A DNA stretch of 64,000 bases from Desulfarculia bacterium (GTDB taxonomy: Bacteria > Desulfobacterota > Desulfarculia > G963662305): positions 960,428 through 1,024,427 of the forward strand of contig OY759351.1 of the NCBI GenBank assembly GCA_963662305.1. Direction: 5' to 3'. The notes under the pieces are model-generated. The model was not told where the DNA came from. It ran no database searches and saw only the letters and a list, made by a program, of their open reading frames with translations. Both the position numbers and the translations under genes were made by a program. Shown here piece after piece: positions 3,921-64,000 of the stretch. The number at the start of each line of letters is the position of its first letter. Position 1 is the first letter of the stretch.

Positions 3921-3998
3921 GGGCCCATAGCTCAGTCTGGTTAGAGCCACCGGCTCATAACCGGTAGGTCCCTGGTTCGAAGCCAGGTGGGCCCACCA
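3921..3998 (+). tRNA. tRNA with CAU anticodon (elongator Met or lysidine-modified Ile2), CCA encoded
   Basis: Cloverleaf can be drawn: acceptor gggccca/tgggccc, anticodon loop ctCATaa, T-loop GGTTCGAAGCC. G1-C72 pairing argues against an initiator tRNA. Confidence 0.9.
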
Positions 3999-6353: not shown

Positions 6354-6743
6354 GCGGGCCGGAGAGGGACAGGCGGCCGCTGGCCTCGTTTTGAGGCGGG
6401 AGGAAAGTCCGAGCTCCACAGGGCAGGGTGCTGGCTAACGGCCAGTGGGGGCGACCCCAAGGACAGTGCCACAGAGAACAGACCGCCCCGGATCCTGCCT
6501 GGCAGGGCCGGGGTAAGGGTGAAACGGCGAGGTAAGAGCTCACCAGTTCCGGGGGCGACTCCGGAAGCTTGGTAAACCCCACCCGGAGCAAGACCATATA
6601 GGGGGGCGCTGGAGGATGGCCCGTCCGAGTCCCCGGGTAGGTTGCTGGAGGCGCCGGGTAACCGGCGTCCTAGAGGAATGGTCGCCGCCCCGGACCTTTA
6701 TCGGCCGGGGAACAGAACTCGGCTTACGGCCCTCTCCGGCCCG
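6354..6743 (+). ncRNA. rnpB: RNase P RNA, bacterial type A
   Basis: GGAGGAAAGTCCGAGCTCCACAGGGCAGGGTGCTGGCTAACGGCCAG... matches the conserved P4/P5-P7 core of M1 RNA; GGTAAGAGCTCACCAG and ACCCCACCCGGAGCAAG boxes present. A terminal P1 stem (gcgggccggagaggg / ccctctccggcccg) closes the molecule. Confidence 0.85.
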
Positions 6744-45186: not shown

Positions 45187-46010
45187 TCATTCACGTCCAG
45201 CTAAGGGTAGAAAAAATGGCCCGACTCGCCCTGGTTCCCGGCATAATGGTGTTGCTTGTAACCCACTAATCGGAATGGATAAATCAGGATATGGTTCATT
45301 GTGGCACGATCTTCTCCCGGATGCTCAAAATCATCCCGCGACATGTTTTCGGTACCCTGGACAAGGCCAACGAAAAACGCCCGGCTTCCTTTTTCGAAGC
45401 CCTTTTCGGGCGGGCCTATAACCGTTGCCGACCCGTTGCTCCCAAGCACAAGTTCAAGTTCAAAAACAAGCTCTTCTCACTGGACGCGACCACGGTGAGC
45501 CTCTTTCCCTGGGCCAGGTTCCGCAAGACCAAGGCCGGGATCAAGATCAACACCCTGCTCGACCATGACGGCTATCTGCCTGCTTTTGTATCAATTTCAG
45601 AGGCAAGGAAGCATGAATCCAAGACCGCCCGAACAATTCGCCTGCCCAAGGGTTCCATCGTGGCCATGGACAAGGCCTACCTCGCCTTTTCCTGGCTCGC
45701 TGCCCTGAACAACAGGGGCGTCTTTTTCGTCACCAGGATGAAAAAGGGCACCCGTTTAAAGGTCGTCAAAAGGAACCAAGCCAATCGCCGCCTGGGCGTC
45801 ACTTCCGATCAGACCATCTGGTTGACCGGCTCCAAATGATCAGATTACCCGGCCGCGCTGCGCCGGGTCGGCTACCGGGACAAGGAGACCGGCAGACATT
45901 ACGTTTTCCTGACCAACAATTTCGACCTCGCCGCCAGGACCGTCGCCGACATCTACAAGGAACGCTGGCAGATCGAGACCTTCTTCCGGTTCATCAAGCA
46001 GAACCTGAAG
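45187..46010 (+). mobile_element. degraded IS4-family element (left end plus transposase remnant; 3' end missing)
   Basis: Similar to the 12518-13793 IS at nucleotide level, including the left terminus gtcc.gctaagggt.gaaaaaatggcc, but diverged and truncated after ...FIKQNLK. Confidence 0.75.
45291..46010 (+). pseudogene. IS4-family transposase pseudogene (internal deletion, frameshift near 45836, 3' truncation)
   Basis: Two-frame reconstruction: MVHCGTIFSRMLKIIPRHV... then ...DYPAALRRVGYRDKETGRHYVFLTNNFDLAARTVADIYKERWQIETFFRFIKQNLK*. Confidence 0.8.
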
Positions 46011-46458
46011 ATGCACTCTCCAGGAGCTCCTTGAACCGCCAGTATCAAAGAATGATATTACATGTGAGAACAACCAGTTAACCTTGTGCTTCACTTAGCC
46101 GGGCAGAAATGATTTCAAGGCAAGATCACTCTGTCGCTGGACCAAAATTCGGGGAGAGGTCAATTCCTTTGAATTTGCTGATCAGCATAAGATTTTATGC
46201 GTGTAAATCCTTTCATGATTTTCCTGTAAACCTGCCCAAGGAGAGCTCACTGCTAACATTGAAAATCAAGCGACGCCACTCAGCTCCCTCGTGAGCCTTT
46301 TAATCCCCCAAGGGGGGTTTAATTCCCTGCGGCTTGCCGCGAGTGCAACCACCGTTTTCTCCTGCCATACCCCGCTGCTTGCTGCGGGGTGGTTGCTTAA
46401 ATTCACTTTGCAAATTCCGGAATATGCTTGACCGCACCAACAGGACAGGTTATGCATA

Positions 46459-46498
46459 TTGGTAAGACCGGTCGGATAATCTTACCGGTAAGATGAGG
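46459..46498. promoter_or_regulatory. GntR/FadR-type operator-like bipartite palindrome upstream of dctP
   Basis: TTGGTAAGACCGGT-cggataat-CTTACCGGTAAGA. Near-identical to the motif at 49997-50034. A TTGACC -35-like hexamer lies 17 nt upstream. Confidence 0.5.
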
Positions 46499-46542: not shown

Positions 46543-47589
46543 ATGTACCGATTAGCAGGGATTAAGAGCATCTTTTTAGTAGCGGCTTTGATTTTTTCAG
46601 TTACTGTGTCGGCAGTATGTTCAGCGGATTCCGGCAAGGTGGAATTAAGCGTTTCCTTTCCGGACAAGGCCAAGTCGGGATTCGGTGCAGACGTCTTCGG
46701 ACCTTGGGGTGAGGCTGTTAAATCCATTACCCAGGGTCGGGTGACCTATACTCTCTTCGGCTCTCAGTCTCTGAATAAGATACCGGATGCCTTTGAGGCC
46801 ACCGTCAGTGGCGTTGCCGATGTCAATCACCTCATAGAGCAGGCCATCCCGGGGCGCTTCCTTTTGGCCGATATCTTCACCCTGCCCGGTATTATTCCCA
46901 ACCAGGCGGTGGCCAATCAGGCCTACCGGGAACTCATGGAGATGTACCCGCAGTTCCTGGAGCAGTATAAAGGGGTCAAGGTTTTATGGGCCTCGGTCAA
47001 CATGCCGGCCGATCTTCATTCCAAGGTGCCCATTAAAAGCCTGAGCGATCTAAAAGGTAAGATCATCGGTTGCCAGAACGCCGCCTCGGCCAGCGCCCTT
47101 AAGGCGCTCGGGGCCAGCGCCAGCATCATCACCATCGCCGAGGCCTACTCATCCTTGGAGCGGGGCGTTATCGACGGCGCAGTGGTGGCCTGGGGGACCT
47201 ACTGGTCCTGGCGCCTGTTCGAGGTGACCAAACACCACACCCTGCTGCACATCGCCCCCGTCACCTCGGCCTACATCGCCAACGAGAAAAAATTGGCCAA
47301 GATTTCGCCGGCCGACCAGAACGCTATTCTTATGATGAGCAAGGAGTTGGGCCCGAACCTGACCGCCAGATGTAACGCCAACACCCGCTCCATGGTTTTA
47401 GCGCGTGAGGCGACAAAGGAAAAAGGGCACGAATTCTACGAATTGTCTATCGATGATAAGGCAAAGGCCACCGCTTCCTATAAGCCTATTTGGGACAAAT
47501 GGGTGGCTGAGGTCACCAAGGCAGGTTATCCGGGGCAAAAGATTCTGGACGATCTGCTAAGGTTGATAGAAAAATACAAAAATTCATAG
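46543..47589 (+). CDS. dctP: TRAP transporter substrate-binding protein (DctP family)
   Basis: Signal peptide; DctP-like motifs (AEAYSSLERGVIDG); GGGAGG ribosome-binding site before ATG 46543. Confidence 0.8.
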   Translation: MYRLAGIKSIFLVAALIFSVTVSAVCSADSGKVELSVSFPDKAKSGFGADVFGPWGEAVKSITQGRVTYTLFGSQSLNKIPDAFEATVSGVADVNHLIEQAIPGRFLLADIFTLPGIIPNQAVANQAYRELMEMYPQFLEQYKGVKVLWASVNMPADLHSKVPIKSLSDLKGKIIGCQNAASASALKALGASASIITIAEAYSSLERGVIDGAVVAWGTYWSWRLFEVTKHHTLLHIAPVTSAYIANEKKLAKISPADQNAILMMSKELGPNLTARCNANTRSMVLAREATKEKGHEFYELSIDDKAKATASYKPIWDKWVAEVTKAGYPGQKILDDLLRLIEKYKNS

Positions 47590-47804: not shown

Positions 47805-49925
47805 GTGCGCGAGTTGGCCGTTGTCTCAACAAACTCAAACCCCGGGGTTTTACGAATGGGACGAAGTGAGATGATCGAACGGTCATTCCTGCCCGCCGTC
47901 GAATTTGAATTCGCCGTCCTGGCTGATACCCACTACATGCAGGACCCGGGTTCCGAGCAGGTTGAATTCCAGTCCCGCCGTCTCCAGACGGCGAGAATCG
48001 AGAGGGTGTTGGGGCTGGTTGAATCCCTGGAAGTCGATTTTGTGGTTCACCTCGGGGATCTGACCCAAAATTACCCCGAGGCCGAAGGCTATCATGATTC
48101 GCTCGACCAGGCCCTGGGGCAACTCAAGAAACGCAACCTGAATTGGCGGTTCGTGGCCGGTAATCACGATGTGGGGGACAAGCCCGATCCGACCATGCCC
48201 ACAGAGTGGGTCTCTGAAGAAAGGCTCTCCCATTATCACCGCGTTGTCGGCCCTTCGTGGTATAGCTGGGACCGGAATCGCCGCCATTTCGTGGTCTTAA
48301 ATTCACAGATACTGAATTCCGCCCTGCCCCAGGCCGCCGCCCAGAATCAGTGGCTGGAAGAAGATCTGGCGGCCCACCGGGGCAGGCCGGTTTTCATGTT
48401 CATGCATCTGCCGCTTTATCTGGAAAACGAGGCCGAACCGGATTTGGGGCATTATGACAATATCGGTCAGCCGGCCCGCCGGAGATTGCTTAGTTTGATC
48501 CGTGAGTACGGGGTAAAGCTGGTTTTCGCCGGCCACAGCCACTACCCCTTTTTCGATAATATCGGAGCGACGAAATATTACGTGGCCGCTTCGCCTTCTT
48601 TCACCCGGCCGGGATTCGGGGAGATGTTTTCCAGTTGCCCTCCCCCGGAAAGGGGTCGCAATGATCAAGGCAAGCTGGGATTTTATCTGGTCCGGGTCGG
48701 CGGCGACAACATCGAGGTCCACTTTATCAGAACCGGAGGGGAGACCGCAGCCCTGGGAAGCGAACCGGATTATAAGAAGATCGTTCCCTGCCTTTCCTCG
48801 GAATATCCCGATTCGCCGATGGGGCTGACGCTTCGGCATCCCCTGTCCTGGAGAAGCGAGGTCCCGATCGCCTTTCCCTCGACCATCCGCCAGAAAGTTC
48901 GTAATGATTGCCAGATGTTGGCTATCACCGAACTGGGCTGCAGGCACCTCCGGGTTCCGGCGGCCGATTTTCAAGATGAGTTTCAACGGCAGAGGTTGAC
49001 CATCTTAAGGAACCAGGGTGTCGGCCTGACCGCTTTTTGGTTGTGGTCCGAGGGACTTGATTTGGTTTCAGCGATCCTGCCCTTCAGGGATCTTCTGGAC
49101 GGGATGGAGATTCAATTGGTCGGTCTCACCAAGCCGGGGCCGGAGTGTCTGGACCTGATGGCAGCCCTGGTCTCTCAATCAGGTCTGGAAACGACCCTTT
49201 CAACCCTGATTCCGAACGAGCGTGTCCGGGGCAAACAGCATGATCGTCCCAGATTCGGATTTCTGCCAGGCGAGTTGCCGGAATTGATTCACCATCTGAG
49301 CAAAAACCGGCCTGGTCCGGGACGGATCACAGCCCGCCTTGAACCCGGAATCGAACCTTGGGAGACCGTTGTTCGAGGCCGGTGGGCATCCCGTCCGGAC
49401 CGCCCCTTTGCGATCGACTGGCTGGTGGAAATGCAGACCACGGACGAGTCGGAGCAGACGGCCCTGGCGGCCGAAGCCCTGTTCGCCGGGGCCGCCTTGG
49501 GCGACTCCCGCATCTTCCTGGAACCCGTAATCGACCTTGACCGGACAATGGACGCCGCCTTCGGGCTGCTCGACCGGTTGGACAATCCCCGTCCCGCTTT
49601 CAGGGCCGTCAGTTGTCTGAACACCATACTTTTCAATAGCGGCGGAAAGTACAGTCCGAGAGAGCCTTTTCAGTTTGACGGGGTTCGGGTGCTGGGCCTT
49701 GACGGAAAAGGGGAAACGCTTCTCCTGCTCCTGCCCGACCGGTCAAACCGGGACGGGGTGGAAGTGGATATCCAGGGGCTCGAATCCCTGGCGGGAATCT
49801 CGGGGACAGACGAATACTATGATCTGGGAAAAGGGGCGGGGATGAAGCCGGGATTCGGCGAAGACCGCGATTCACAATCCTTGTTGCGGCCCACAGGTCC
49901 GATCCTGCTCGTGGTCCGGTACTGA
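47805..49925 (+). CDS. calcineurin-like metallophosphoesterase with an ~450-aa uncharacterised C-terminal region
   Basis: The N-terminal ~250 aa carry the metallophosphoesterase motifs LADTHY, GDLTQNY, GNHD and GHSHY. The C-terminal two thirds match no family I recognise. The start is GTG 47805 or ATG 47871. Confidence 0.65.
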   Translation: MRELAVVSTNSNPGVLRMGRSEMIERSFLPAVEFEFAVLADTHYMQDPGSEQVEFQSRRLQTARIERVLGLVESLEVDFVVHLGDLTQNYPEAEGYHDSLDQALGQLKKRNLNWRFVAGNHDVGDKPDPTMPTEWVSEERLSHYHRVVGPSWYSWDRNRRHFVVLNSQILNSALPQAAAQNQWLEEDLAAHRGRPVFMFMHLPLYLENEAEPDLGHYDNIGQPARRRLLSLIREYGVKLVFAGHSHYPFFDNIGATKYYVAASPSFTRPGFGEMFSSCPPPERGRNDQGKLGFYLVRVGGDNIEVHFIRTGGETAALGSEPDYKKIVPCLSSEYPDSPMGLTLRHPLSWRSEVPIAFPSTIRQKVRNDCQMLAITELGCRHLRVPAADFQDEFQRQRLTILRNQGVGLTAFWLWSEGLDLVSAILPFRDLLDGMEIQLVGLTKPGPECLDLMAALVSQSGLETTLSTLIPNERVRGKQHDRPRFGFLPGELPELIHHLSKNRPGPGRITARLEPGIEPWETVVRGRWASRPDRPFAIDWLVEMQTTDESEQTALAAEALFAGAALGDSRIFLEPVIDLDRTMDAAFGLLDRLDNPRPAFRAVSCLNTILFNSGGKYSPREPFQFDGVRVLGLDGKGETLLLLLPDRSNRDGVEVDIQGLESLAGISGTDEYYDLGKGAGMKPGFGEDRDSQSLLRPTGPILLVVRY

Positions 49926-49969: not shown

Positions 49970-49998
49970 TTGACTATAAATGTGAGGGACATATAATT
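49970..49998 (+). promoter_or_regulatory. sigma70 promoter of the gntR operon (TTGACT, 17-nt spacer, TATAAT)
   Basis: TTGACT 49970-49975 and TATAAT 49993-49998. The operator motif begins inside the -10 box. Confidence 0.6.
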
Positions 49999-50034
49999 GG
50001 TAAGACCGGTAAGGATATCCTACCGGTAAGGAGA
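49997..50034. promoter_or_regulatory. GntR/FadR-type operator-like bipartite palindrome overlapping the -10 box and transcript start of the regulator gene
   Basis: TTGGTAAGACCGGT-aaggatat-CCTACCGGTAAGG; core TGGTnnnACC as in FadR-subfamily operators. Confidence 0.55.
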
Positions 50035-50041
50035 TGACGGT

Positions 50042-50773
50042 ATGGCCTTTGAAAAAATAGCCCCTGGAACATTTCAGAACAGAAGCTCTCTCATCGCCAA
50101 GATCATTGTGGAAAAAATCCAAGCCGGCGAATACAAGGTCGGTTCCAAGCTGCCGCCGGAAAGAGTGCTCGCCGAGCAGATGGGGGTCGGACGGCCGGCC
50201 ATCAGGGAGGCCATCTGCGCCCTACAAATCGTGGACATAGTGGAGAGCAGGCCGGGCGACGGCACCTACGTCCAGAACACCGAATGGGCCAACCCGAGTA
50301 CGTTGCAGCGGGAAAGTTCCGCCCTTTCGCTGCTGGAGGAGGGCGACAACCCCTTTGAGGCCCTGGAGGCCAGGCGGACCGTGGAAGCAGATACCGTGAG
50401 GCGTGCTTCTGAAAGAAGGGATCAGCAGGATCTTGAAAAAATCAAATTGACTCTTGACCGGATCGTTGCCGCCGTCCGCGATAAGGAGATAGACGATCTG
50501 CTCGAAGCCGATTGCGAATTTCACGAAGCTATCGCTGTCGCGGCCAAAAATACGCTTCTGGAAAGAATCCTCAAGTCCCTCATGAAAGTGATGGAGCAGG
50601 AACTCTGGACCAAGATCAAGAAACAGTTTCTGGCAAGCAATTCCAAGGATCATTTGTCGGAGACCGTTAAGTCTCACGAAGAGATTTTTGAGGCCATAAA
50701 AAACCAAGACGGGCAAAGAGCGGCCAAGATCATGGAACGGCATTTTGACGAAATAGAACGTTTGTTCGATTAG
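50042..50773 (+). CDS. GntR-family (FadR-subfamily, FCD domain) transcriptional regulator
   Basis: The N-terminal winged helix-turn-helix is KLPPERVLAEQMGVGRPAIREAICALQIVDIV. An FCD-like helical domain forms the C-terminus. The AGGAG ribosome-binding site is 7 nt before ATG. Confidence 0.85.
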   Translation: MAFEKIAPGTFQNRSSLIAKIIVEKIQAGEYKVGSKLPPERVLAEQMGVGRPAIREAICALQIVDIVESRPGDGTYVQNTEWANPSTLQRESSALSLLEEGDNPFEALEARRTVEADTVRRASERRDQQDLEKIKLTLDRIVAAVRDKEIDDLLEADCEFHEAIAVAAKNTLLERILKSLMKVMEQELWTKIKKQFLASNSKDHLSETVKSHEEIFEAIKNQDGQRAAKIMERHFDEIERLFD

Positions 50774-50791: not shown

Positions 50792-51262
50792 ATGTCTGTT
50801 GAAGATAAGCTGAAAGAGATGGGGCTCCAGCTCGATTTGGACCGGGAGGTCAAGGCGCCTGTTATTAACAAAGCAACCAGATCGGGAAATTTAATTTTCG
50901 TTTCCGGACACGGACCGCTCGGCCCTGATGGGAAGATGGCTTTTTCGGGCCGGGTCAGCGCAGAGCTTAGCCTGGAGGAAGGGTACCAGGCGGCCAGACT
51001 CTGCGCCCTCGATTGTCTGTCTTCGGTAAAGGCCATGGTCGGGTCTCTGGATGAAATCGAGGAAATCGTCTCGGTCAGGGGCTATGTAAGCAGCTCCCTT
51101 GATTTTTTTGATCAACCCAAGGTTTTAAACGGCGCCTCGGAATTCCTTATCGCCCTATTGGGGGACCGTGGCCGCCACACCCGGACAGCCATCGGCACCT
51201 CCGCCCTGCCCGGCAACATTCCGGTTGAGGTAGACATGATCGTCAGGGTTGGGTCCGCTTAG
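50792..51262 (+). CDS. Rid (YjgF/YER057c) family protein
   Basis: Chorismate-mutase-like Rid fold signature (...DQPKVLNGASE...RTAIG...P); about 156 aa. Confidence 0.8.
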   Translation: MSVEDKLKEMGLQLDLDREVKAPVINKATRSGNLIFVSGHGPLGPDGKMAFSGRVSAELSLEEGYQAARLCALDCLSSVKAMVGSLDEIEEIVSVRGYVSSSLDFFDQPKVLNGASEFLIALLGDRGRHTRTAIGTSALPGNIPVEVDMIVRVGSA

Positions 51263-51308
51263 GATCTGAAAACCGCTTTCCGCCGCACCGGCATAAAGGA
51301 GCGCTCCA

Positions 51309-51782
51309 GTGGGAGAAGCTGAGAAAAAAATAAGGGAGTTGGGGCTGGTTCTGGCCCCCAGGACGGAGATTCGGACGCCGGTCTACGAAAAAGCCAAGCG
51401 GGTCGGCGATCAGGCTTTTGTGGCCGCTCACGGTCCGCAGGACTCCCAGGGCCGGGTGGCATTCACCGGCCGTCTGGGAATCGACCTCACCATTGATGAA
51501 GGCTACGAGGCGGCAAGACTTTGTGCTCTTGACTGCCTGGCCTCTCTGAAGGTTTTGCTGGGTACGCTCGACAAAATTTCCCAGGTCGTCATGGTCAGGG
51601 GTTTTGTCAACAGTGCCGATGGTTTTTTTGACCAGCCCAAGGTAATGAACGGCGCTTCTGAGGTTCTCATTGATATTTTCGGTGACCGGGGCAGGCATTC
51701 CAGGACAGCCATAGGCGTGCCCGTTTTACCCAGAAACCTGGCCGTTGTTGTTGATATGCAGGTCGATTTGGTTTCCGACTGA
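51309..51782 (+). CDS. Rid-family protein, tandem paralog
   Basis: About 50% identical to the upstream Rid gene (CALDCL, FFDQPKV.NGASE, GDRGRH.RTAIG shared). Confidence 0.8.
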   Translation: MGEAEKKIRELGLVLAPRTEIRTPVYEKAKRVGDQAFVAAHGPQDSQGRVAFTGRLGIDLTIDEGYEAARLCALDCLASLKVLLGTLDKISQVVMVRGFVNSADGFFDQPKVMNGASEVLIDIFGDRGRHSRTAIGVPVLPRNLAVVVDMQVDLVSD

Positions 51783-51840
51783 TCCATATCCGACCTGGCC
51801 CAGGTTTCGACAGCCTCTCGTTCACTCTTCGGAGGAAAAC

Positions 51841-53139
51841 ATGAAAAACGACAAATCGACGGCATTGCTCAACGAATATGACCGCATCGTTCCGGGAGGA
51901 GTGCACTCAAATTTCCGTCGGCCGGTCTATTTCAAGAAGGTCCAGGGAGCCTATCTCTGGGATGTTGACGGCAACGAATATCTTGATTGCGTGATCAACA
52001 ACGGCGCCTGCATTTTGGGACATGGCGACCCGCAAGTCGCTGCGGCAGTGACAGAAACGATGAGCAACGGCCTCACCGTCGGGCTGGAGTCCGAACTCAG
52101 CCTGGAGGTGGCCAAACAGCTTCACGAGATGATCCCCTCGGCCGAACAGGTCCGGCTGGCGAATACCGGCACCGAGGCGGTGATGAAGGCCCTGATGGTC
52201 GCCCGGGCCTTCACCGGAAGGGAAAAGATAATAAAGGTGGAGGGATGTTATCACGGCTGGTTTGACGAGGCCCAGGTGAGCGTCCATCCGGATCCGCAGG
52301 AGTCCGGTCCGGCCGATGCCCCGATCCCGGTTCTTGAGACTTCGGGTATCAGACATAACACAACCGAATCGGTACTGGTCGTTCCCTTTAACAACCCGGA
52401 GTCGCTTGAGCGGACCCTGGAGGCCAACAAGGACCAGGTTGCGGCCATGATAATCGAGCCGGTGGTGCTCAACAGCGGCTGCATTATGCCTCAGCCGGGA
52501 TATTTGGCCGAGGTCAGGCGGCTGACCGAAAAATACGGCGTGCTTCTGGTCTTCGACGAGGTGATTACCGGTTTCAGGCTGGCTCCCGGAGGGGCCCAGG
52601 AACTCTTCGGGGCGGTTCCGGACCTCAGTACCTTTGCCAAGGCCATTGCCAACGGGTACTCCCTGGCAGCCTTAGCCGGCCGCAAGGATCTGATGGAGTT
52701 GACCCGGCCGGGCCGGCGTCTGACCTATGGCGGGACCTACAACGGGCAGTATTCGGCCCTGGCTGCGGCGTCGGTCTGCCTCCGGAAACTGAAGGACGGA
52801 ACGGTCCAGAAACACCTCGATACAATAGGCCGGACCCTTTGCCGAAGGTTTGAAAGGGAGGCGGCTGAGGTGGGAGTAAAAGCCCGCATATACCAATGCG
52901 GCGGCGAGTTCCAGATCTATTTCACAGACCGGGAGATCAAGGACTACCGCGACGCCTGCTCCGCCGACCAGGACAGCTACCGGATCTTTTTCGAGACCGT
53001 CAGCGACAAGGGGCTTTGGATGAGCGCGGGGTACTTGTTCCACCACGGCCTGACCTACGCTCACGGCGAGGCCGAATTGGACAAGATCATAACCGCCTTC
53101 AGGGCCGGTCTGGAGGCGGTGAGGGCCTTTCAGGGCTGA
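51841..53139 (+). CDS. class III PLP-dependent aminotransferase (glutamate-1-semialdehyde aminomutase-like)
   Basis: GGVHSNFR, YLWDVDGNEYLD, NTGTEAV and FDEVITGFR motifs. ATG 51841 directly after GGAGGAAAAC. Confidence 0.8.
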   Translation: MKNDKSTALLNEYDRIVPGGVHSNFRRPVYFKKVQGAYLWDVDGNEYLDCVINNGACILGHGDPQVAAAVTETMSNGLTVGLESELSLEVAKQLHEMIPSAEQVRLANTGTEAVMKALMVARAFTGREKIIKVEGCYHGWFDEAQVSVHPDPQESGPADAPIPVLETSGIRHNTTESVLVVPFNNPESLERTLEANKDQVAAMIIEPVVLNSGCIMPQPGYLAEVRRLTEKYGVLLVFDEVITGFRLAPGGAQELFGAVPDLSTFAKAIANGYSLAALAGRKDLMELTRPGRRLTYGGTYNGQYSALAAASVCLRKLKDGTVQKHLDTIGRTLCRRFEREAAEVGVKARIYQCGGEFQIYFTDREIKDYRDACSADQDSYRIFFETVSDKGLWMSAGYLFHHGLTYAHGEAELDKIITAFRAGLEAVRAFQG

Positions 53140-53200
53140 TCGCTGAAAAACTGGTCACCTGTGGGAGCTAGAATTTCTTTTTGGATACGGAGGCAAACTA

Positions 53201-54433
53201 ATGGCAGCCAATACACAACGCCCCTGGATCAGTGAGAGGGCCTTCATCAGCCCCTGGACATACGAGGCCAATCAATCACTTAGTCTGCCCGGGCAGGTGA
53301 CGATCTACGACGTCACCCTGAGAGACGGTGAACAATACCCCGGGTTGGTTTTTACCAAGGAAGACAAGATTCGCCTGGCCGAGGCCCTCGACGATCTGGG
53401 CATAAGCCGCCTGGAGGCCGGGATGCCGGCTGTCTCAAAGGACGATTTCGAGGCTGTTTGCGAGATCGTTAAAAGAATTAAGTCCGATGTGGTGGTCTTC
53501 TGCCGGGGATTGGAAAGCGATGTGGATCTGGCCGTGGAGGCCGGGGCGTGGGGGGTGATAGTGGAGCTCCCCTCCAACCAGACTCTCATCGAAAAAGGAT
53601 ACCAGTGGACCCGGGAGGATGTGGTCGGCAAGGCCATCAAAACCTGTAACTACGCCAAAGGTAAAGGCCTCCATACCACTTTCTTCCTCATCGATTCCTC
53701 GGGCGCCGATCCGTCCTTTTTGAAGTCGATTATCGAAGAGGTCGTCCCCAGGACCGACATCGACTCCCTGACCGCGGTGGACACCTTCGGGCGGTTGAAC
53801 CCTATGGGAACGGCCGCCTTTGTCAAAAAAGTTCGAGAATGGAGCGGGGTTCCGGTGGAGATTCACGTCCACAACGATTTCGGGCTGGGGCTGGCCAACT
53901 CGCTGTCAGCCGTGGAGGCCGGGGCGGTTGCGGTCCACACCAATATGCTCGGACTGGGAGAGCGCTCGGGAGGAGTGCCCACGGAAGAGGCAGCTGCGGC
54001 CCTGGAATACATCTACGGCCTGGATACGGGTGTGGATCTGAAAAAGGTAAAGAAGACGGCCCAGGTATTCGAGTCCGTCTCCGGGGTGAAAATGACGGGC
54101 CACAAGCCGGTTGTCGGAGCAAACTCCTTTGCCTACGAGGCGGGAATAGCGGCCATGTTCTCCTATCGGCTTTTCAAGGATGATCTGCCTTTGAATGTGA
54201 TGCCCTACCGTCCCGATCTGGTGGGCGGTGAATTCCGGATAGACCTGGGCAAAAAAGCCGGGCAGTACAACGTGATGTGGCATCTGGACCGGCTCAGTCT
54301 GGCGGCCGACGAAGACCAGGTGCGCCGAATGGTCGATCTGATAAAGGCCAAATCAATGGAAAAACGCAGCGCCATCACTGAGAACGAATTCATCGACATC
54401 TATAAAACGGTTTGCCCCGGTGCTTCCATCTAA
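53201..54433 (+). CDS. DRE-TIM metallolyase (HMGL-like / pyruvate carboxyltransferase family) aldolase or synthase
   Basis: YDVTLRDGEQ motif near the N-terminus and HVHNDFGLGLAN metal site. Confidence 0.7.
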   Translation: MAANTQRPWISERAFISPWTYEANQSLSLPGQVTIYDVTLRDGEQYPGLVFTKEDKIRLAEALDDLGISRLEAGMPAVSKDDFEAVCEIVKRIKSDVVVFCRGLESDVDLAVEAGAWGVIVELPSNQTLIEKGYQWTREDVVGKAIKTCNYAKGKGLHTTFFLIDSSGADPSFLKSIIEEVVPRTDIDSLTAVDTFGRLNPMGTAAFVKKVREWSGVPVEIHVHNDFGLGLANSLSAVEAGAVAVHTNMLGLGERSGGVPTEEAAAALEYIYGLDTGVDLKKVKKTAQVFESVSGVKMTGHKPVVGANSFAYEAGIAAMFSYRLFKDDLPLNVMPYRPDLVGGEFRIDLGKKAGQYNVMWHLDRLSLAADEDQVRRMVDLIKAKSMEKRSAITENEFIDIYKTVCPGASI

Positions 54434-54566
54434 CCGGAGCTGTCGGCTCATCACTGCAGGGTGGGTTGTCCGTTTTCAGGATGATCAACTCTGCCAATCA
54501 AGCGCTTACGCGCCTTGGAGTTGATCGGGGTGACGATTATTTCTTCCCGATCAGGTCCATAGGGGA

Positions 54567-56465
54567 GTGATCAGGCCAATGAACCGGGAATTCAACGACA
54601 CCATAACCCGAATCGCCCTGTGGTACAGCAGATTGGGCGCGATCTGCCTTCTCGGAATCGTGCTTGTCATTTTGATAGACGTATTCCTGCGGCGGATGTT
54701 CCACATGACCTTTGTGGGCGCCCTGGAATCGGTGGAACTGATGCTGATCATGGTGATGTTCGCCGGCCAGGCCCACACCGAAATAAACGACCGTCACGTT
54801 CAGATAGACATCCTCACGGATAAGCTGTCTCCCCGTACTCAAGCGGTGCTGAGGGTCTTTGTCGGAGCCATGAGTCTGGGTATCACCTTCATCCTGGTCT
54901 GGCAGTCGTTCGTCATGGCCCACAACATGCAGTTGGCCGGAGACAGAACCGGAATGCTGGGGCTTCCCGTATATCCCATGATCTACCTCATGGCGGTGGG
55001 CCTTTCGCTTTTGTGTTTCGTCCTATTTATCGAGTACTACAGATATGTTCGAGAACTTTTAGCCCGGGGAAAAGGCTCCTGGGCCGTGGTCCTGATTTCG
55101 GTCGTTGCGGTCGCCGCTCTCTTTTTGGTGCCGTGGTGGGGCAGATCGCTCTGGCCGGACATCAGCCGCCAGTCGATCGGGATAATCTTTTTGAGCGGTC
55201 TTTTCCTTCTTCTGTTCTTAAGGATGCACATCGGACTGGCGATCGCCTTTTGCGGAGTCATCGGCATGTCCTTTCTGGTCAACTATACGGCCGGCTTCAG
55301 CCTGGCCGGAATCACCATCAAATCGGTGGCCTCGAGCTACACCTGGAGCGTTATCCCGCTGTTCGTCTTTATGGGCTATCTGGCCTCCAACACCGGCATG
55401 GCCCGGGAGATATACGAGACAGCCTACGCCTGGGTCGGGTATCAGCCGGGCGGTCTGGCCATCGCGACCATGGGGGCCTGCGGCGGTTTTGCCGCGGTCA
55501 CGGGCGACACCCTCTCCGGGGCGGTGACCATGGGTTCGATCTCCCTGCCGGAGATGAAACGCTACAACTACGATCCCAAACTGGCCACCGGAGCTGTTTG
55601 CGCCGGCGGGACCCTGGGGGTGCTGATCCCCCCCAGCATAGGCTTCATCATCTACGGACTGCTGACCGAGGAATCCATCGGGAAGCTTTTTATCGCCGGC
55701 ATAGTCCCCGGCATTCTGCTGGTTTTGCTCTTCGCCGCGACCATATCGATCATGGTCCGGCTGAACCCGGCCATGGGGCCCCGGGGCGAAAAGGTCGGCT
55801 TCAGGGAAAAGGTGATATCCCTGAGAAAAACATGGGGGGTTATTCTTTTATTCGTCGTCGTTATCGGGGGTATTTACGGCGGCGTTTTTACCGCCACCGA
55901 AGCCGGCGTGGTCGGCGCAGCAGGGGCGCTGGTCCTCGGGCTGATAAAAAGATCGCTTACCTGGGAAAGGTTCCTGGACGCCCTCAACCAGACCATCCAG
56001 ACGACCTCGATGGTCTTTCTGATATTCATCCCGGCCACGATCCTGAATCATTTTCTGGCCGCCACCAAACTGCCGATGATGATGGCCAATTTTCTGACCG
56101 AGATCCAGACCGCACCCATCGTGATAATCATCATCATAATGATTTTCTACATAATAATCGGGTGCGTCATGAACGTCCTGCCGGCCGTCATCCTGACTCT
56201 GCCGCTGATCTATCCCACCGTCAAGACGCTCGGTTTCGATCCTACCTGGTTCGGGGTGGTGATGATGATAATCATGGAGATGGGCCAGATCACACCGCCT
56301 ATCGGAATGAACGTCTTCGCCATCTCGGGTGTGGCCAAGTACGTACCCATGGGTGATATTTTTAAGGGCATCATGCCTTTTTGGCTCGCCATGACGGTTT
56401 TCGTGGCCCTGCTTCTGATATTCCCCCAGATAGCCACATTTTTGCCTGATTTGCTGATGAAATAA
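54567..56465 (+). CDS. dctQM: TRAP transporter fused small/large permease (DctQ-DctM)
   Basis: N-terminal four-transmembrane DctQ-like part, then a DctM large permease (...GGTLGVLIPPSIG...); about 17 transmembrane segments. Confidence 0.8.
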   Translation: MIRPMNREFNDTITRIALWYSRLGAICLLGIVLVILIDVFLRRMFHMTFVGALESVELMLIMVMFAGQAHTEINDRHVQIDILTDKLSPRTQAVLRVFVGAMSLGITFILVWQSFVMAHNMQLAGDRTGMLGLPVYPMIYLMAVGLSLLCFVLFIEYYRYVRELLARGKGSWAVVLISVVAVAALFLVPWWGRSLWPDISRQSIGIIFLSGLFLLLFLRMHIGLAIAFCGVIGMSFLVNYTAGFSLAGITIKSVASSYTWSVIPLFVFMGYLASNTGMAREIYETAYAWVGYQPGGLAIATMGACGGFAAVTGDTLSGAVTMGSISLPEMKRYNYDPKLATGAVCAGGTLGVLIPPSIGFIIYGLLTEESIGKLFIAGIVPGILLVLLFAATISIMVRLNPAMGPRGEKVGFREKVISLRKTWGVILLFVVVIGGIYGGVFTATEAGVVGAAGALVLGLIKRSLTWERFLDALNQTIQTTSMVFLIFIPATILNHFLAATKLPMMMANFLTEIQTAPIVIIIIIMIFYIIIGCVMNVLPAVILTLPLIYPTVKTLGFDPTWFGVVMMIIMEMGQITPPIGMNVFAISGVAKYVPMGDIFKGIMPFWLAMTVFVALLLIFPQIATFLPDLLMK

Positions 56466-56568
56466 GGCGAGTGGATTGAAATTGGCGGCGACCCCAAAAC
56501 ATCCGTCCGGTGATCGGAGGCCTGATCGGGTTCGGTCAGGGGAGACGGGATATTCAGAGGAGGAAACT

Positions 56569-57330
56569 ATGCTGTGGTCAGAGATGACCTCCCCTCAGGT
56601 AGAGAAGTGCGCCAAGGAGAATTATCTTGTCGTTCTGCCCTGCGGCTCCCTGGAGCAGCACGGGTGGCATCTCCCGGTGGACACGGACAGCGACATCATC
56701 ACCAACGTGGCCCGTCAGGCGGCGTCAAAGATAGAACGGACCGTGGTAATGCCGACCTTGTGGTGCGGCTTTTCGCCCCAGCACCAATCTGCGGCCGGGA
56801 CCGTATCCCTCTCTCTTTCGACCTACGCCTCCTTGATCCAGGAGATCATCGGCGCCGTGGCCGAACACGGTTTCAAGCGGATGGTGCTGCTCAACGGGCA
56901 CGGGGCCAACGAGGAGCCGCTTCGGGCTGTTGTCCGCGGGTTGGTCAAGGAATACCGGATCAGGCTGCTGGTGCTGACCTACTGGTATCTTATCGACCGG
57001 GCCGAGGTGGAAAAGATACGGGAGGGGGGACCGGGCAGCATGGGCCACGCCGGAGAGATGGAGACTTCGGTGGAGCTTTACCTGCGACCCGATCTGGTCC
57101 ACATGGATAAGGCGGTTTCAAACCCGATCCGGCCCAAACTGAAGCATCAGTGGGAGGATATGTTTGCTCCGGGGCCGGCCTTTATGGTCGATTCGCTTTA
57201 TCGTTCCTCGGGGCCCGTGGTCCGGGGAGACGCCACCTGCGGCAGCGCCGAAAAGGGTCGCAAATTCATGGACTGGTCCATCCAGAAGGTAGCCGAATAT
57301 TTACAGGGGTTCATGGAGTTGAACGACTGA
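56569..57330 (+). CDS. creatininase-family amidohydrolase
   Basis: LPCGSLEQHGWHLPVDTD...LNGHG...GHAGEMETS motifs; ATG 56569 after GGAGGAAAC. Confidence 0.75.
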   Translation: MLWSEMTSPQVEKCAKENYLVVLPCGSLEQHGWHLPVDTDSDIITNVARQAASKIERTVVMPTLWCGFSPQHQSAAGTVSLSLSTYASLIQEIIGAVAEHGFKRMVLLNGHGANEEPLRAVVRGLVKEYRIRLLVLTYWYLIDRAEVEKIREGGPGSMGHAGEMETSVELYLRPDLVHMDKAVSNPIRPKLKHQWEDMFAPGPAFMVDSLYRSSGPVVRGDATCGSAEKGRKFMDWSIQKVAEYLQGFMELND

Positions 57331-57389
57331 GAAGCTGGCTTCCATGTCCCTGACTGAAATGAAAGATGTTTCTTAAGGGAGAGTTTTCG

Positions 57390-58265
57390 ATGAGCGACGT
57401 GAAATGCGTTTTCGAGGCCAAGGCCACGACGGCCGAGTGTCCTGTCTGGAATATAGAGGGGAAAGCCCTTTATTGGATCGACATACAGGGGAAAACCCTC
57501 AACCGTTTTGACCCTGCATCGGGTCGGAACAGGGTCTGGCCCGTGGGCGAGGATATCGGATCCTTTGCTTTCCGGGAAACCGGGGGTGTGGTGGCGGCCA
57601 TGCGTTCCGGGTTCGCCCATATCGACCTGAACGGCGGCGGGGTTGACTACCTGGTCGATCCCGAGGCCGAGATCGAGACCAATATTTTCAACGACGGCAA
57701 ATGCGACCGGGCCGGGAGGTTCTGGGCCGGAACCATGTATGAACCCCAGCCCCGCAACCAGCCGGTCGCCGGCCTGTATAGACTCGATCCCGACCTGAGC
57801 TGGCATAAGATGGAGGAGGGGATCGGGACCTCCAACTGTCTGGCCTGGAGCCCGGACAACCGGACCATGTATTTCGGCGACTCCCGGCGCAAAACCGTCT
57901 GGACCTACGATTTTGATTTCGAGACGGGAAGCCTGAGCAACCGCCGGGTGTTTCTCGAACTGGGAGAGCTGGGGCGTCCGGACGGCGCCGCGGTCGACGA
58001 GGAAGGTGGCTACTGGCTGGCCGTTTTCGATTCCAGCCGGGTTTTCCGGTTCACCCCGGACGGCAAGGTCAGCCAAGAGATCAGTCTTCCGGTAACCCAG
58101 CCCACCATGGTCGCTTTCGGCGGCGATGACTTGAGCACGCTCTATATAACCTCGGCCAGAATAGGCTTAAGCGAGGAGCAGCTCGTCCGGGAACCTCTGG
58201 CCGGCGGAATTTTCGCCGTTAAGGTCGAGTTCAAGGGATTGCCCGAACCGAAGTTTAAGGGTTAG
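57390..58265 (+). CDS. SMP-30/gluconolactonase/LRE-like lactonase (six-bladed beta-propeller)
   Basis: ECPVWN...LYWIDI...FNDGKCD...PDG motifs characteristic of the regucalcin family. Confidence 0.75.
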   Translation: MSDVKCVFEAKATTAECPVWNIEGKALYWIDIQGKTLNRFDPASGRNRVWPVGEDIGSFAFRETGGVVAAMRSGFAHIDLNGGGVDYLVDPEAEIETNIFNDGKCDRAGRFWAGTMYEPQPRNQPVAGLYRLDPDLSWHKMEEGIGTSNCLAWSPDNRTMYFGDSRRKTVWTYDFDFETGSLSNRRVFLELGELGRPDGAAVDEEGGYWLAVFDSSRVFRFTPDGKVSQEISLPVTQPTMVAFGGDDLSTLYITSARIGLSEEQLVREPLAGGIFAVKVEFKGLPEPKFKG

Positions 58266-58309
58266 CGCACTGCAGGTTCCTGAAAACATTATAATCGATA
58301 GGAGAGGGC

Positions 58310-60418
58310 ATGAATTCAGCGGGCGAGCCGGTTGAGGCCGCATTGTCCAGGGCCGCAGGTCAACTGTCCGAGTATCAATCCAAACGGCTTTTGGCCGAGT
58401 ACGGCATCCCGGTTGTGGATGAGATTCTAGCCGAGAAGCGGGAAGACGTCCTACAGGCGGCCGTTGACCTGGGTTGGCCGGTGGTGCTCAAGTACTGTTC
58501 CTCCCAACTGACCCACAAGACCGAACAGGGACTGATCGCTCTGAATCTGAACAATCCGGAGGAACTAAAGGAGGCCTTTGAGCGGCTCTCCTCCCTGGCG
58601 GCTGAGACCGGATTGGAGGGGGCGTTCCTGGTTCAGCGGTTCATCAGGGGCGATCGGGAGCTGGTCGCAGGTTTGATCCGCGATCCCCTTTTCGGCCCCT
58701 GCATCATGTTCGGCCTGGGCGGGATTATGACCGAAGCCTTGGGCGATGTGACCTTCCGGGTCGCCCCGTTTTCCCGGGCCCAGGCCGAGCAGCTCCTCCA
58801 GGAACTAAGGTCGGCCAAGATCCTGGGCGAGTTTCGGGGACAGCCGGCCGTCGATCGGGAAATTCTGATAGAGACTTTAATGGGGCTCGGCCGGATCGGC
58901 CTGGATCACCCGGAGATCAAAGAGTTGGACATCAACCCCTTGGTCATCCGGGAAGGACGGCCCGTGGCTGTGGATGCCCTGGTGATCCTGGACCGGGAGG
59001 TCCCCAAAGAGGCTGACCGGGGGGTCAGGACAGAGGGCCTGGGGGCCCTGTTCGAACCCCGCTCGGTGGCCGTTATCGGGGCCACGGCCAAGGAGGGCAA
59101 GGCCGGAAACGACGTAATCAAAAACATTCTGGCCAACGGATATAGGGGCGACCTCCATCTGGTCAACCCCAAGGGAGGCCGAATCATGGGCCGCCGGGTG
59201 GCGGCCTCCATCGAGGACCTTCCGGACGGAATCGACCAGGCCATCATCATCCTTCCGGCCCAGGCCAATCCGGACGCCATCCGAGCCTGCGCCGCCAAGG
59301 GGATCAAGGCCGTGGTTCTGGCGGCGGGTGGATTTGCGGAGGTCGACGAAAACGGCTCCTCCCTCCAGGAGGAGCTGGCCAGGGCGGTGACCGAGACCGG
59401 CATTCGGGCCTTGGGCCCCAACACTTCGGGCCATACCTCCACCCCCCACAACTTCACCTCCAGCTTTTTCCCCCTGGGCAGGCTGCCCAAAGGGCCCATA
59501 AGCTATATCGCCCAGACGGGTAATTTCGCCACTCATACCATGCGCTCCATTATGTCCACCGAATACTACGGGGTGGCCCGGGTGATCGGGCTGGGCAACA
59601 AGATCGATTTTGACGAGACGGACGCCCTGGCCTACCTGGCCCAGGACCGGGAGACCAAGGCCATCTTCTGCTATCTGGAAAGCCTGGCCCGGCCTCGTCT
59701 GTTTCTCGAAACAGCGGCCGAAGTAACCAAAAAGAAGCCGGTGGTGATGCTCAAGGGAGGCAGTTCGGAGGACGGCGCCCGGGCTGCGGTGGCCCACACG
59801 GCGGCCCTGGCCTCTGACCGGAGGATAATGGACGCGGCCTTACGGCAGGTCGGGATTGTCCAGATCCACGAATACTCCCACCTGATTCTGGCGGCCAAGG
59901 CTCTGGTGCGGATGCCCCCCCCCAGGGGCAACCGGGTCGCTTTTCTGGCCCCTTCAGGGGCCATGCTGGTGGCTCTGACCGATCTTTGCCGGCTGAAACT
60001 GGGCTTAACCGTGCCCCGGGTGGAGGAGCGGACCAGAGCCCGGTTGCAGGAGATCAGCCCCTCTTATATCCGGATGCGCAATCCGGTCGATATCTGGCCG
60101 GCCGCCGCCGTCAGCGGGGTGGAGTTCGCCTATCGGGAAGGGATGAAGGCTGTGCTGGAGGACCCGAACATCGACGCCGTGGTTCCGGTCTTGATGATGA
60201 CCGACGAAACAGGGGTACCGGATTTGACCTTTATTCTCGATTTGGCCGATACGCACCCGGACAAGCCCATTTACATCACCTTTTCCGGAGAGAAAAAGCA
60301 CATGGATGCGGCCCGGGATTTTCTTGAACCGCATGGGGTGCCTACCTACCCCCTCATTGAGCAGCCATTTGAGGTTCTCAGCATTCTGGCCCGCTGCCGC
60401 GGGGCCATGGAGAGGTAA
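58310..60418 (+). CDS. ADP-forming acyl-CoA synthetase, fused beta (ATP-grasp) then alpha (CoA-binding / ligase-CoA) domains
   Basis: The N-terminal ATP-grasp region runs LSEYQSKRLLAEYGIPVV...VVLK. Next comes the CoA-binding motif RSVAVIGATAKEGKAGN. A succinyl-CoA-ligase-like alpha domain follows. Confidence 0.8.
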   Translation: MNSAGEPVEAALSRAAGQLSEYQSKRLLAEYGIPVVDEILAEKREDVLQAAVDLGWPVVLKYCSSQLTHKTEQGLIALNLNNPEELKEAFERLSSLAAETGLEGAFLVQRFIRGDRELVAGLIRDPLFGPCIMFGLGGIMTEALGDVTFRVAPFSRAQAEQLLQELRSAKILGEFRGQPAVDREILIETLMGLGRIGLDHPEIKELDINPLVIREGRPVAVDALVILDREVPKEADRGVRTEGLGALFEPRSVAVIGATAKEGKAGNDVIKNILANGYRGDLHLVNPKGGRIMGRRVAASIEDLPDGIDQAIIILPAQANPDAIRACAAKGIKAVVLAAGGFAEVDENGSSLQEELARAVTETGIRALGPNTSGHTSTPHNFTSSFFPLGRLPKGPISYIAQTGNFATHTMRSIMSTEYYGVARVIGLGNKIDFDETDALAYLAQDRETKAIFCYLESLARPRLFLETAAEVTKKKPVVMLKGGSSEDGARAAVAHTAALASDRRIMDAALRQVGIVQIHEYSHLILAAKALVRMPPPRGNRVAFLAPSGAMLVALTDLCRLKLGLTVPRVEERTRARLQEISPSYIRMRNPVDIWPAAAVSGVEFAYREGMKAVLEDPNIDAVVPVLMMTDETGVPDLTFILDLADTHPDKPIYITFSGEKKHMDAARDFLEPHGVPTYPLIEQPFEVLSILARCRGAMER

Positions 60419-62579: not shown

Positions 62580-63838
62580 TGGTCTCGACCCTGGCCCTGG
62601 GCAGATGGGGGTAGTTTTGAAGGTCCAGCCGGGGCGTTTTATCTTCTATCCGGCACAGGACCAGATGCTTGACCGCGTCGTAGGAGACCGCACCCAAGCC
62701 GAGGGCCGCTTTGATCCCGGCCCTGACCTCGGCCTGGTCAAAGATCTCCAGCAACCTCAGGATCTGGATATACTCCCGCTTTCCCTTTTTCCCCGAGCGC
62801 CGTTCCAGGAGCCGGCGCAAGCGGTTGAACTCTTGGGGCAGGTCCCAGCCCTTGAGCGGCGCGGCCTGGTCCAGGGCATTTGGTTTACGCTCCAGGATCT
62901 TTAGAGTAAGCCTCAAAAACACGTTCCGTGTTTTTGAGGGACCGCCGGGCCAAAAGCGCGGTTTTGGCCCGGCTTACGGTCGCTTAGCGACCGGCGGCCC
63001 GTGTCCGGTCCGCTTAGAGCGGTCTTCTTTCGAAACATATTTATGAAACCGCTCTATATAGTGCAAGGGATTATAAACCAGGTCCTCTTTTTCGTAAGAC
63101 CGGGGATAACGGACGATCTCCTTGCCTTGGCAGACGATCACCACCTGGTGGACATAGCCCTTGACCAGGACTTCCTGGTGGCCGTAAACAGACGGGACCG
63201 AGTAGTCGCATGCCTTGAATCGGACCAGAGAGGTTGAGCGGACCCTGGTTGACTCCTCGACTGAAATGGGCAAAGGCCAGATTGTGCCCTTCGCACAAAC
63301 CCTCGATCCTCTCGGCCGGAAACGCGGTCACGGACATATCGTCGCTCTGGGGCAGGCTGAGGCATAAATAATGGGCCTTTTGTAAAACGCCGTCGATTAT
63401 TACCCGGGCCTCTCCAAAATCGACCTGGGCATCGCCCGGTGGATGATCCAAGGGCACAAACATCTCCTTGGATCAAAAGCGCAGTTCGCGGACGTAATCC
63501 TTGACCATTGTCAAGCCGCCCGTATATCCGAACTCGTCCCGTAACCGCTCGAAGATCCGCTTCACCGTGTGACGCTGCTTCTTCGGGCGATCCTTGTCTT
63601 ATTCCAATATCTGTTTGATTATCCCAAGGAATGGCCTCGTTTTGGGCCGCCTGGCCGGCTTCTCTCGACAATATCCCGGCGGAATCGAATGCTCCAGCAT
63701 CTTGGATACCGTCCGGCGATCTATCCCGAATCTACGCGCCGCCTCCCGGCGGCTCATCCCCTCCACCATACAGGCCCGGCGGACCTTCCCGTATATCTCC
63801 ATGCCGTACATCCTCCACCCCTCCAACGCTCGATTCAA
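62580..63838 (-). pseudogene. istA: istA (IS21 transposase), split over at least three frames
   Basis: Segments 63599-63838, 63071-63463, 62974-63273 and 62395-62922 each carry consecutive IstA regions in different frames. Confidence 0.7.
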
Positions 63839-63940
63839 CTCGAACTATGGAGTGGGCGCCAGTGGTACATTTTTCAACCGGCCTTCTCGCCTCCTTTTCG
63901 GCCGTCCACTGGTACATTTTCTCTCCGCCTTTTACACTGG

Positions 63941-64000
63941 CCACGGGCTCCCTGGCCGCCGGCGGAACTCTGGGGATTCTCATCCCGCCCAGCATCGGCT
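63941..64000 (+). pseudogene. fragment of a second dctM-like TRAP permease gene beginning right at the IS21 boundary
   Basis: Translation LATGSLAAGGTLGILIPPSIG matches LATGAVCAGGTLGVLIPPSIG of the dctQM gene at 54567. No 5' half is present upstream of the IS. Confidence 0.5.

Follow-up and report, generated by a model that had tools for sequence, protein, structure and literature searches.

A predicted operator of composite, phased layout shared by the promoters of a FadR-subfamily regulator operon and a TRAP substrate-binding protein gene

Autorepressed regulators of the FadR type acting on GGT-N3-ACC operators are textbook knowledge. For E. coli PdhR, the experimentally defined box is AATTGGTnnnACCAATT with a GGTnnnACC core, as determined by gSELEX, and the site at the pdhR promoter reads AATTGGTaagACCAATT (PMC7660256). 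In E. coli, 11 bp separate the PdhR box from the transcription start of its operon, which is autoregulated and begins with the regulator gene. LldR uses the box AAnTGGTCnGACCAnTT, with two boxes per target, implying two bound dimers (PMC10272880). NanR, also of the FadR subfamily, binds (GGTATA)3 repeats as three dimers, and its cooperativity requires an N-terminal extension of 32 residues (PMC8012715).

The window, that is, the whole 64 kb stretch of DNA that was analyzed (60% G+C), contains a gene, gntR, for a regulator of the same subfamily. Its product, of 243 aa, combines a GntR winged helix-turn-helix domain (wHTH; PF00392, residues 18-77, E=9.5e-17, 60.9 bits against a cut-off of 27) with an FCD domain (PF07729, residues 106-236, E=4.6e-26, 92.1 bits against a cut-off of 24.3). 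About 17 residues precede the wHTH, which can be aligned to the E. coli PdhR wHTH and has the pattern KLPPER..LA.Q..V.RP..REAI in common with it, and the nearest solved relatives of the protein are FCD regulators. The best NCBIfam matches were LldR (130.7 bits), NanR (115) and PdhR (104.4), and the protein stays far below the equivalog cut-offs of all three, among them those for PdhR (NF007001, 330 bits) and LldR (NF007741, 311 bits). Judged by sequence comparison, it is a related paralogue of LldR, NanR and PdhR rather than an orthologue. The window also holds a bacterial RNase P RNA of class A (6361-6741, 305 bits) and a tRNA gene (3921-3995), both unrelated to the operator described below.

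In its operon, gntR is followed by two RidA/YjgF genes, a class-III aminotransferase gene (GSA-aminomutase-like), an HMGL-like gene, the fused TRAP gene dctQM, a creatininase-family gene, an SMP-30/SGL gene (lactonase-like) and a gene for an ADP-forming acyl-CoA synthetase. No named pathway was matched by this gene set in the family libraries used. The TRAP substrate-binding protein gene dctP is found at 46.5 kb without an adjoining membrane component, and an intact dctQM sits in the gntR operon. Shared control of both makes functional sense. The gene between dctP and gntR encodes a metallophosphoesterase-domain protein of about 700 aa, whose N-terminus is a calcineurin-like phosphoesterase domain and whose long C-terminal part matches no family, and it occupies the same place in the gene order of L002 (L002:237-2327), the contig with the closest regulator homologue. 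No terminator-like sites were predicted between dctP and gntR, on either side of the metallophosphoesterase gene, so the whole stretch may be one cluster with two regulated promoters.

Directly upstream of the dctP promoter region, a truncated DDE_Tnp_1 transposase ORF (IS4/IS5-like) and fragments were found at 45291-46094, and this remnant may explain the separation of dctP from dctQM. Between it and the dctP promoter lie GC-rich nested hairpins (46290-46410; MFE -41.9 kcal/mol, z -1.9), including CCCCCAAGGGGGG and GCAACCACC...GGTGGTTGC, which have no match in Rfam and may form a terminator or insulator. At the right window edge, a second DctM-like coding fragment starts abruptly (63937-64000, + strand) just downstream of opposite-strand ORFs (63071-63671, - strand). 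Over 21 aa it has 81% identity to the operon DctQM (residues 339-359), and it may represent a TRAP permease gene that was broken up by an insertion.

The 64 kb window contains TTGGTAAGACCGGT-N8-CYTACCGGTAAG at two places and no others, 46459-46492 and 49997-50030, both on the + strand. These were also the only window matches to the pattern TTGGTAAGACCGGTNNNNNNNNCYTACCGGTAAG when as many as three mismatches were allowed. At this tolerance, 100 dinucleotide-preserving shuffles gave no match, that is, none is expected by chance. The octamer TACCGGTA has two occurrences in the window, one in each copy. When the half-sites were searched singly with mismatches, no further credible copy was obtained in the 64 kb; the best extra candidate, a two-mismatch match at 63091, was dismissed as lying within an ORF. 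The pattern search and the shuffles thus agree with the first-pass annotation, which had reported two near-identical copies, and the mismatch-tolerant searches of the whole motif and of its halves bear out its statement that no third one was seen in the 64 kb. Details of that annotation were revised. The flanked motifs end at 50031 and 46493 rather than at 50034 and 46498, and the perfect palindrome CTTACCGGTAAG, which it had placed in both copies, is present at the dctP site, the gntR site having CCTACCGGTAAG instead.

Outside the motif, the two copies are dissimilar, and in the alignment their identity stops at the motif borders. Since the flanks are unrelated, the two copies are not a recent segmental duplication. 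A metagenome contig (L001, ENA ERZ21831104) is near-identical to the window from 40042 to 60773, with few scattered SNPs, and both operator copies are unchanged in it; an indel near L001:19312 splits its acyl-CoA synthetase gene into two called genes.

Both copies stand at predicted promoters (Table 1). The -35 and -10 hexamers of the gntR operon promoter are separated by 16 nt, and not by the 17 nt annotated before. Operator copy A shares the last two bases of this -10 element, in agreement with the overlap with TATAAT noted earlier, and reaches the ribosome-binding site. The overlap between the Shine-Dalgarno sequence (SD) and the operator 3' end recurs at the homologous loci L005, L011 and L013. 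The -10 elements are weak at dctP and at several homologous loci. The motif at dctP was said to lie about 45-80 nt upstream of the TRAP binding-protein gene; the upstream placement holds, while the motif ends 50 nt before the start in the public gene call, 46543. At both window sites, the motif begins within about 0-2 nt of the end of the predicted -10 hexamer, and a start at or just past the -10 is the position of a repressor.

Table 1. Positions in the window of the two operator copies, their promoters and the neighboring genes.
Feature	Position	Strand	Remarks
dctP promoter -35 hexamer TTGACC	46428..46433	+	read from sequence
Candidate weak dctP -10 hexamer TATGCA	46451..46456	+	17-nt spacer; tentative, failed consensus scan
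Operator copy B	46458..46493	.	ATTGGT aag ACCGGT cg GATAAT ctt ACCGGT aag a
Box I at dctP	46459..46471	.	TTGGTAAGACCGG, canonical GGT-N3-ACC inverted repeat
Perfect palindrome at dctP site	46481..46492	.	CTTACCGGTAAG (hexamer H4 + flanks)
dctP, TRAP substrate-binding protein	46543..47589	+	Pfam PF03480, NCBIfam TRAP_S1, public gene call
Metallophosphoesterase-domain gene	47871..49925	+	also given as 47805-49925
gntR operon promoter TTGACT-16 nt-TATAAT	49970..49997	+	TTGACT 49970-49975, TATAAT 49992-49997; 11/12 consensus positions
Operator copy A	49996..50031	.	ATTGGT aag ACCGGT aa GGATAT cct ACCGGT aag g
Box I at gntR	49997..50009	.	TTGGTAAGACCGG
Near-palindrome at gntR site	50019..50030	.	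CCTACCGGTAAG (hexamer H4 + flanks)
gntR Shine-Dalgarno sequence AAGGAG	50028..50033	+	overlaps operator 3' end
gntR, FadR-subfamily regulator, proposed repressor	50042..50773	+	GntR wHTH + FCD
Rest of gntR operon	50792..60418	+	gene order in the text
Fused TRAP dctQM	54567-56465	+	within gntR operon

The first part of the motif, box I, contains the core GGTAAGACC, a 9-bp GGT-N3-ACC inverted repeat, at 46461-46469 and 49999-50007. Written as (A)ATTGGTAAGACC, this half is a canonical box and matches the E. coli pdhR operator given above. The flanked boxes, AATTGGTAAGACCGGTA at gntR and TATTGGTAAGACCGGTC at dctP, have the GGTnnnACC core with a pdhR-like central aag, and AATTGGTAAGACCGGTA agrees with the PdhR box at 11 of the 14 specified positions. 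The left flanks (AATTGGT at gntR and TATTGGT at dctP) fit the AATT of the 17-bp palindrome, whereas the right flanks are ACCGGTA and ACCGGTC compared with ACCAATT. The assignment of this half to the FadR-subfamily pattern TGGTnnnACC is upheld by the core at both sites and by the GntR wHTH and FCD domains of the adjacent regulator.

Regulator homologues were collected, their contigs were fetched and the upstream regions were read, giving eight sites with both window copies included. The sequence ATTGGTAAGACCGGT-N8-YTTACCGGTAAGG was found upstream of the homologues in L005 (motif ATTGGTAAGACCGGTCAGGATACCTTACCGGTAAGG), L011/L012 (...CAGGGTACCTTACCGGTAAGG) and L013 (...AAGAATAATTTACCGGTAAGG), each with 60% identity to the window regulator. 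L003/L004 (61-63% identity) carry ATTGGTAAGATTGGTAAGACCCATCTTACCAATAAGG; ATTGGTATTACCGGT... stands upstream in L014 (41%, motif ATTGGTATTACCGGTATACCGGCAAGGCCGGC) and ATTGGTAATACCGGT...ACCGGTAAG in L015 (42%, motif ATTGGTAATACCGGTAAACCGGCAAGACCGGTAAG). By pairwise identity, the regulators at these sites are 40-63% identical and represent four independent lineages, and L014 and L015 retain a nearly identical recognition region although their overall identity is low. All eight sites have a TTGAC -35 element 26-35 nt upstream of the first hexamer, so the motif begins at or just after the -10, and an alignment of the first six sites showed conservation confined to the -35 and the motif. Downstream lie TRAP and aminotransferase genes in the window. 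In L003/L005 there are an adenine-deaminase-like amidohydrolase gene and an ABC transporter, whereas L014/L015 have TctABC together with a divergent M20 peptidase gene. Since the downstream operons differ and the regulator gene is the sole constant neighbor, the motif tracks the regulator gene, which argues for a cognate pair. Upstream of two homologues with a changed recognition region, L007 showed no site of this type and L017 a single LldR-like box, AACATGTCTGACCACTT, over its -35. For dctP, a single homologue was present in the protein database, with 57% identity.

The closest regulator homologue, in L002 (81% identity, identical wHTH, same gene order), has no such motif before gntR. Its upstream sequence CTTGACCGCAACAAGGGACAG aligns with the dctP -35 region of the window with 19 identities in 22 columns; the -35 block CTTGACCGCAaCAAgGGACAG is common to L002:2384-2417 and window 46426-46447. 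In L002, another palindrome, GTTGTCTGGACAAC, comes next and stands some 14 nt ahead of the ATG. The HMGL gene of L002 is split into fragments, and the locus may be decaying or mis-assembled; a promoter swap, operon decay or an assembly chimera could lie behind these differences. In L006 (62% identity), only weak remnants of the motif were seen. With L002 and L006 lacking the motif, autoregulation through this site would be common in the clade but not universal.

Some further candidates were rejected. The sequence CCGGTAAGG at the L002 contig start was considered as an operator remnant, and only 12 nt align. A box-like site between dctQM and the creatininase gene (ATTGGCGGCGACCCCAA at window 56477-56497, TTGGCTCGACCGGT at L002:8366-8379) was not distinguishable from chance. 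The loose box YYGGY-N3-RCCRR gave 25 matches in the window, mostly in CCGG-rich coding sequence, being too permissive at 60% G+C.

On comparison, the eight sites can be read as four AYYGGY hexamers, H1 to H4, with spacings of 9, 8-9 and 9 bp. H1 is ATTGGT without exception, H2 is ACCGGT (ATTGGT in L003), H3 is variable, and H4 is ACCGGT, ACCAAT or GCCGGC. ACCGGT being ACC followed by GGT, each hexamer ends one GGT-N3-ACC box as its right half and begins the following box as its left half. Box I, formed by H1 and H2, is a canonical GGT-N3-ACC box at seven of the sites; at the remaining one, L003, the canonical box is H2/H3 within a perfectly phased array (ATTGGT aag ATTGGT aag ACCCAT ctt ACCAAT). 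In L014 and L015, H3 and H4 form a second canonical box, GGC-AAG-RCC, at a distance of 17 bp from the first one. In sites of the window type, the H3 half is A/T-rich and CTTACC|GGTAAG follows as the second conserved element, with back-to-back half-sites and a center about 21.5 bp, around two helical turns, from box I. GGTAAG is directly repeated with a 9-bp period in operator copy A, L013 and L003, while its second copy is GGTCGG or GGTCAG at three of the eight sites (operator copy B, L005 and L011). The stretch from H2 to H4 is a dyad in which 91.7% of cells are pair-compatible; in L003, both arms are altered, with TT/AA in place of CC/GG.

The "second palindrome" CTTACCGGTAAG corresponds to H4 with its flanks and is not universal across lineages. 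As a description of the window lineage, the bipartite motif of the first-pass annotation is fair, with the palindrome being one lineage-specific variant of a four-hexamer phased array. This composite, phased operator layout is the only mildly unusual feature. It seems rather unlikely that the window site represents a FadR-subfamily geometry not described before, in which a face-to-face GGT-N3-ACC box and an inside-out CTTACC|GGTAAG about 21 bp downstream would be read by a dimer of dimers or by a phased chain of dimers on four 9-bp-spaced hexamers, with a footprint over ribosome-binding-site DNA.

A resemblance of the two copies by chance, by recent local duplication or as a REP/MITE-like dispersed repeat, with no regulatory role, was also considered, since the IS remnant upstream of dctP indicates that rearrangements occurred nearby. 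The pattern TGGTAAGAYYGGT-N7-10-YTACCRRTAAG was scanned in species genomes, JGI metagenomes and viral contigs. In 185,579 species genomes (GTDB representatives, one per species, 596 Gb), there were two matches, both inside ORFs, which fits the estimate of about 0.5 chance matches; neither window copy was among them, the collection apparently being without the source genome. The metagenome scan returned the L003 contig only and missed L005, so this collection is incomplete for the purpose, and the viral contigs gave no match to the pattern. Occurrence at many unrelated loci, the behavior of a dispersed repeat about which the first-pass annotation had cautioned, was hence not observed: the motif has two copies in 64 kb and no dispersed copies in the collections. 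Together with the empty shuffles, the unrelated flanks and the retention of the motif in distant lineages, this makes an origin of that kind extremely improbable. Another reading places the function in the RNA, where a 5' leader hairpin ACCGGUA...UACCGGU beside the SD would control mRNA stability or translation. Lying downstream of the predicted -10, the motif is probably mostly transcribed; a hairpin of -11 to -17 kcal/mol is obtained at all sites, the central dyad is largely pair-compatible with the both-sided changes of L003, and the 3' end abuts the SD at gntR sites. However, the fold z-scores are ordinary (-0.9 to -1.9, with the exception of L003 at -3.5), Rfam has no match to either site, whether at gathering score or at E<=10, and the SD is not sequestered by the hairpin. 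Moreover, the most invariant part, ATTGGTAAGA (H1), is outside the hairpin and at gntR overlaps the -10 and the start point, so that transcription probably leaves part of it out. A site bound by a dimeric protein would be expected to show dyad symmetry just as well, and box I agrees with DNA operators that were defined by experiment for this protein family. An RNA-level element is thus very improbable.

If the site acts as DNA, it could be the operator of a different transcription factor encoded elsewhere in the genome. Many FadR-subfamily paralogues read GGT-N3-ACC-type boxes and the box alone does not give specificity, and no such site precedes the regulator gene of L002, which encodes an identical wHTH. 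Nevertheless, in four lineages with unrelated downstream operons the regulator is the only constant neighbor of the motif, and a diverged recognition region goes with different sites, which renders another factor improbable. The remaining alternative keeps the protein and its role and changes the binding mode: three or four dimers would bind cooperatively and asymmetrically, in the manner of NanR, to the four AYYGGY hexamers, which are about 9 bp apart. The hexamer spacing is kept at eight of eight sites, L003 is perfectly phased, and NanR, the second-best NCBIfam match, binds its three repeats as three dimers (PMC8012715). On the other hand, NanR needs its 32-residue N-terminal extension (PMC8012715), whereas here the wHTH starts at about residue 18. 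In addition, H3 is poorly conserved, the second GGTAAG is altered to GGTCGG or GGTCAG at three of the eight sites, and GGT-N3-ACC is the sole element with canonical geometry kept at seven. A NanR-like mode is unlikely, and the missing extension argues against a strict NanR mechanism.

The preferred and very probable reading is that the 35-bp motif serves as operator for the PdhR/LldR-like repressor of the FadR subfamily encoded next to it, which would autorepress the gntR operon and co-repress dctP. The first-pass annotation had likewise predicted an operator of the adjacent regulator with autoregulation and sharing with dctP, and at the sequence level this is supported by the GntR and FCD domains, the GGT-N3-ACC box, the recurrence in four lineages, the lack of dispersal and the position after the -10. 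Both targets of its two-target regulon were found, within a scope of 64 kb of a genome of about 3 Mb. Against the preferred reading stand the non-canonical downstream half, with its half-sites back-to-back (ACC|GGT), the weakness of the -10 elements at dctP and at several homologous loci, the identical wHTH of L002 without a motif and the weak remnants in L006.

From the observed motif, its position, its conservation and the family of the protein, we infer the binding, its stoichiometry, the sign of regulation and the effector as follows. Operator copy A would be occupied from the last -10 bases, through the start-site region, to the ribosome-binding site of the regulator's own promoter, and operator copy B at the same position of the dctP promoter. 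The effector-free dimeric repressor would sit on the GGT-N3-ACC box TTGGTAAGACCGG, and a second dimer would probably be recruited to the ACCGGT-centered palindrome about two helical turns downstream, blocking RNA polymerase. A ligand, presumably a substrate or product of the TRAP system and catabolic operon, would bind the FCD domain and release the repressor, and this release would co-induce dctP, dctQM and the catabolic enzymes, with negative autoregulation.

If this is true, the orphan dctP is linked to its likely partner dctQM and to an uncharacterized catabolic operon under one switch. An operator consensus would be supplied for a small regulator clade known almost only from metagenomes, and the repressor with its 35-bp operator would be a simple handle for finding the pathway substrate or building a sensor. 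General concepts are unchanged by the finding, since this would be an ordinary repressor-operator pair of a well-known kind.

Compared with the described systems, the sites resemble the NanR operator in that they can be described as four hexamers spaced at about 9 bp; in NanR, GGT-containing hexamers recur every 8-9 bp and several dimers bind, with one domain per dimer on a consensus hexamer (PMC8012715). Unlike NanR, the window protein has no N-terminal extension of 32 residues, the hexamers are mostly self-complementary (ACCGGT) and join into an inverted-repeat box, and conservation does not extend to the third hexamer. Among the NCBIfam families, LldR matches the window protein best, its box AAnTGGTCnGACCAnTT has the same GGT-N3-ACC geometry, and one listed LldR site (glcD/glcC) ends in GACCggTa (PMC10272880). 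Unlike an LldR box, the second element is non-canonical in the window type; it is about 21 bp from the first there and 17 bp from it in L014/L015.

From PdhR, the window system differs in the right flank of the box (ACCGGT instead of the ACCAAT of E. coli), in the extra downstream hexamers or palindrome, and in its targets, which are a TRAP transporter and an uncharacterized catabolic pathway, whereas the E. coli target is pyruvate dehydrogenase. Both proteins belong to the FadR subfamily, with a GntR wHTH and an FCD domain, and have wHTH residues in common. Both are encoded by the first gene of their operon, which is autorepressed in E. coli and proposed to be so in the window. In E. coli, the operator ATTGGTAAGACCAAT follows closely downstream of the start site, with a comparable layout in the window, and box I, (A)ATTGGTAAGACCGGT, has the same central aag as the E. 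coli operator.
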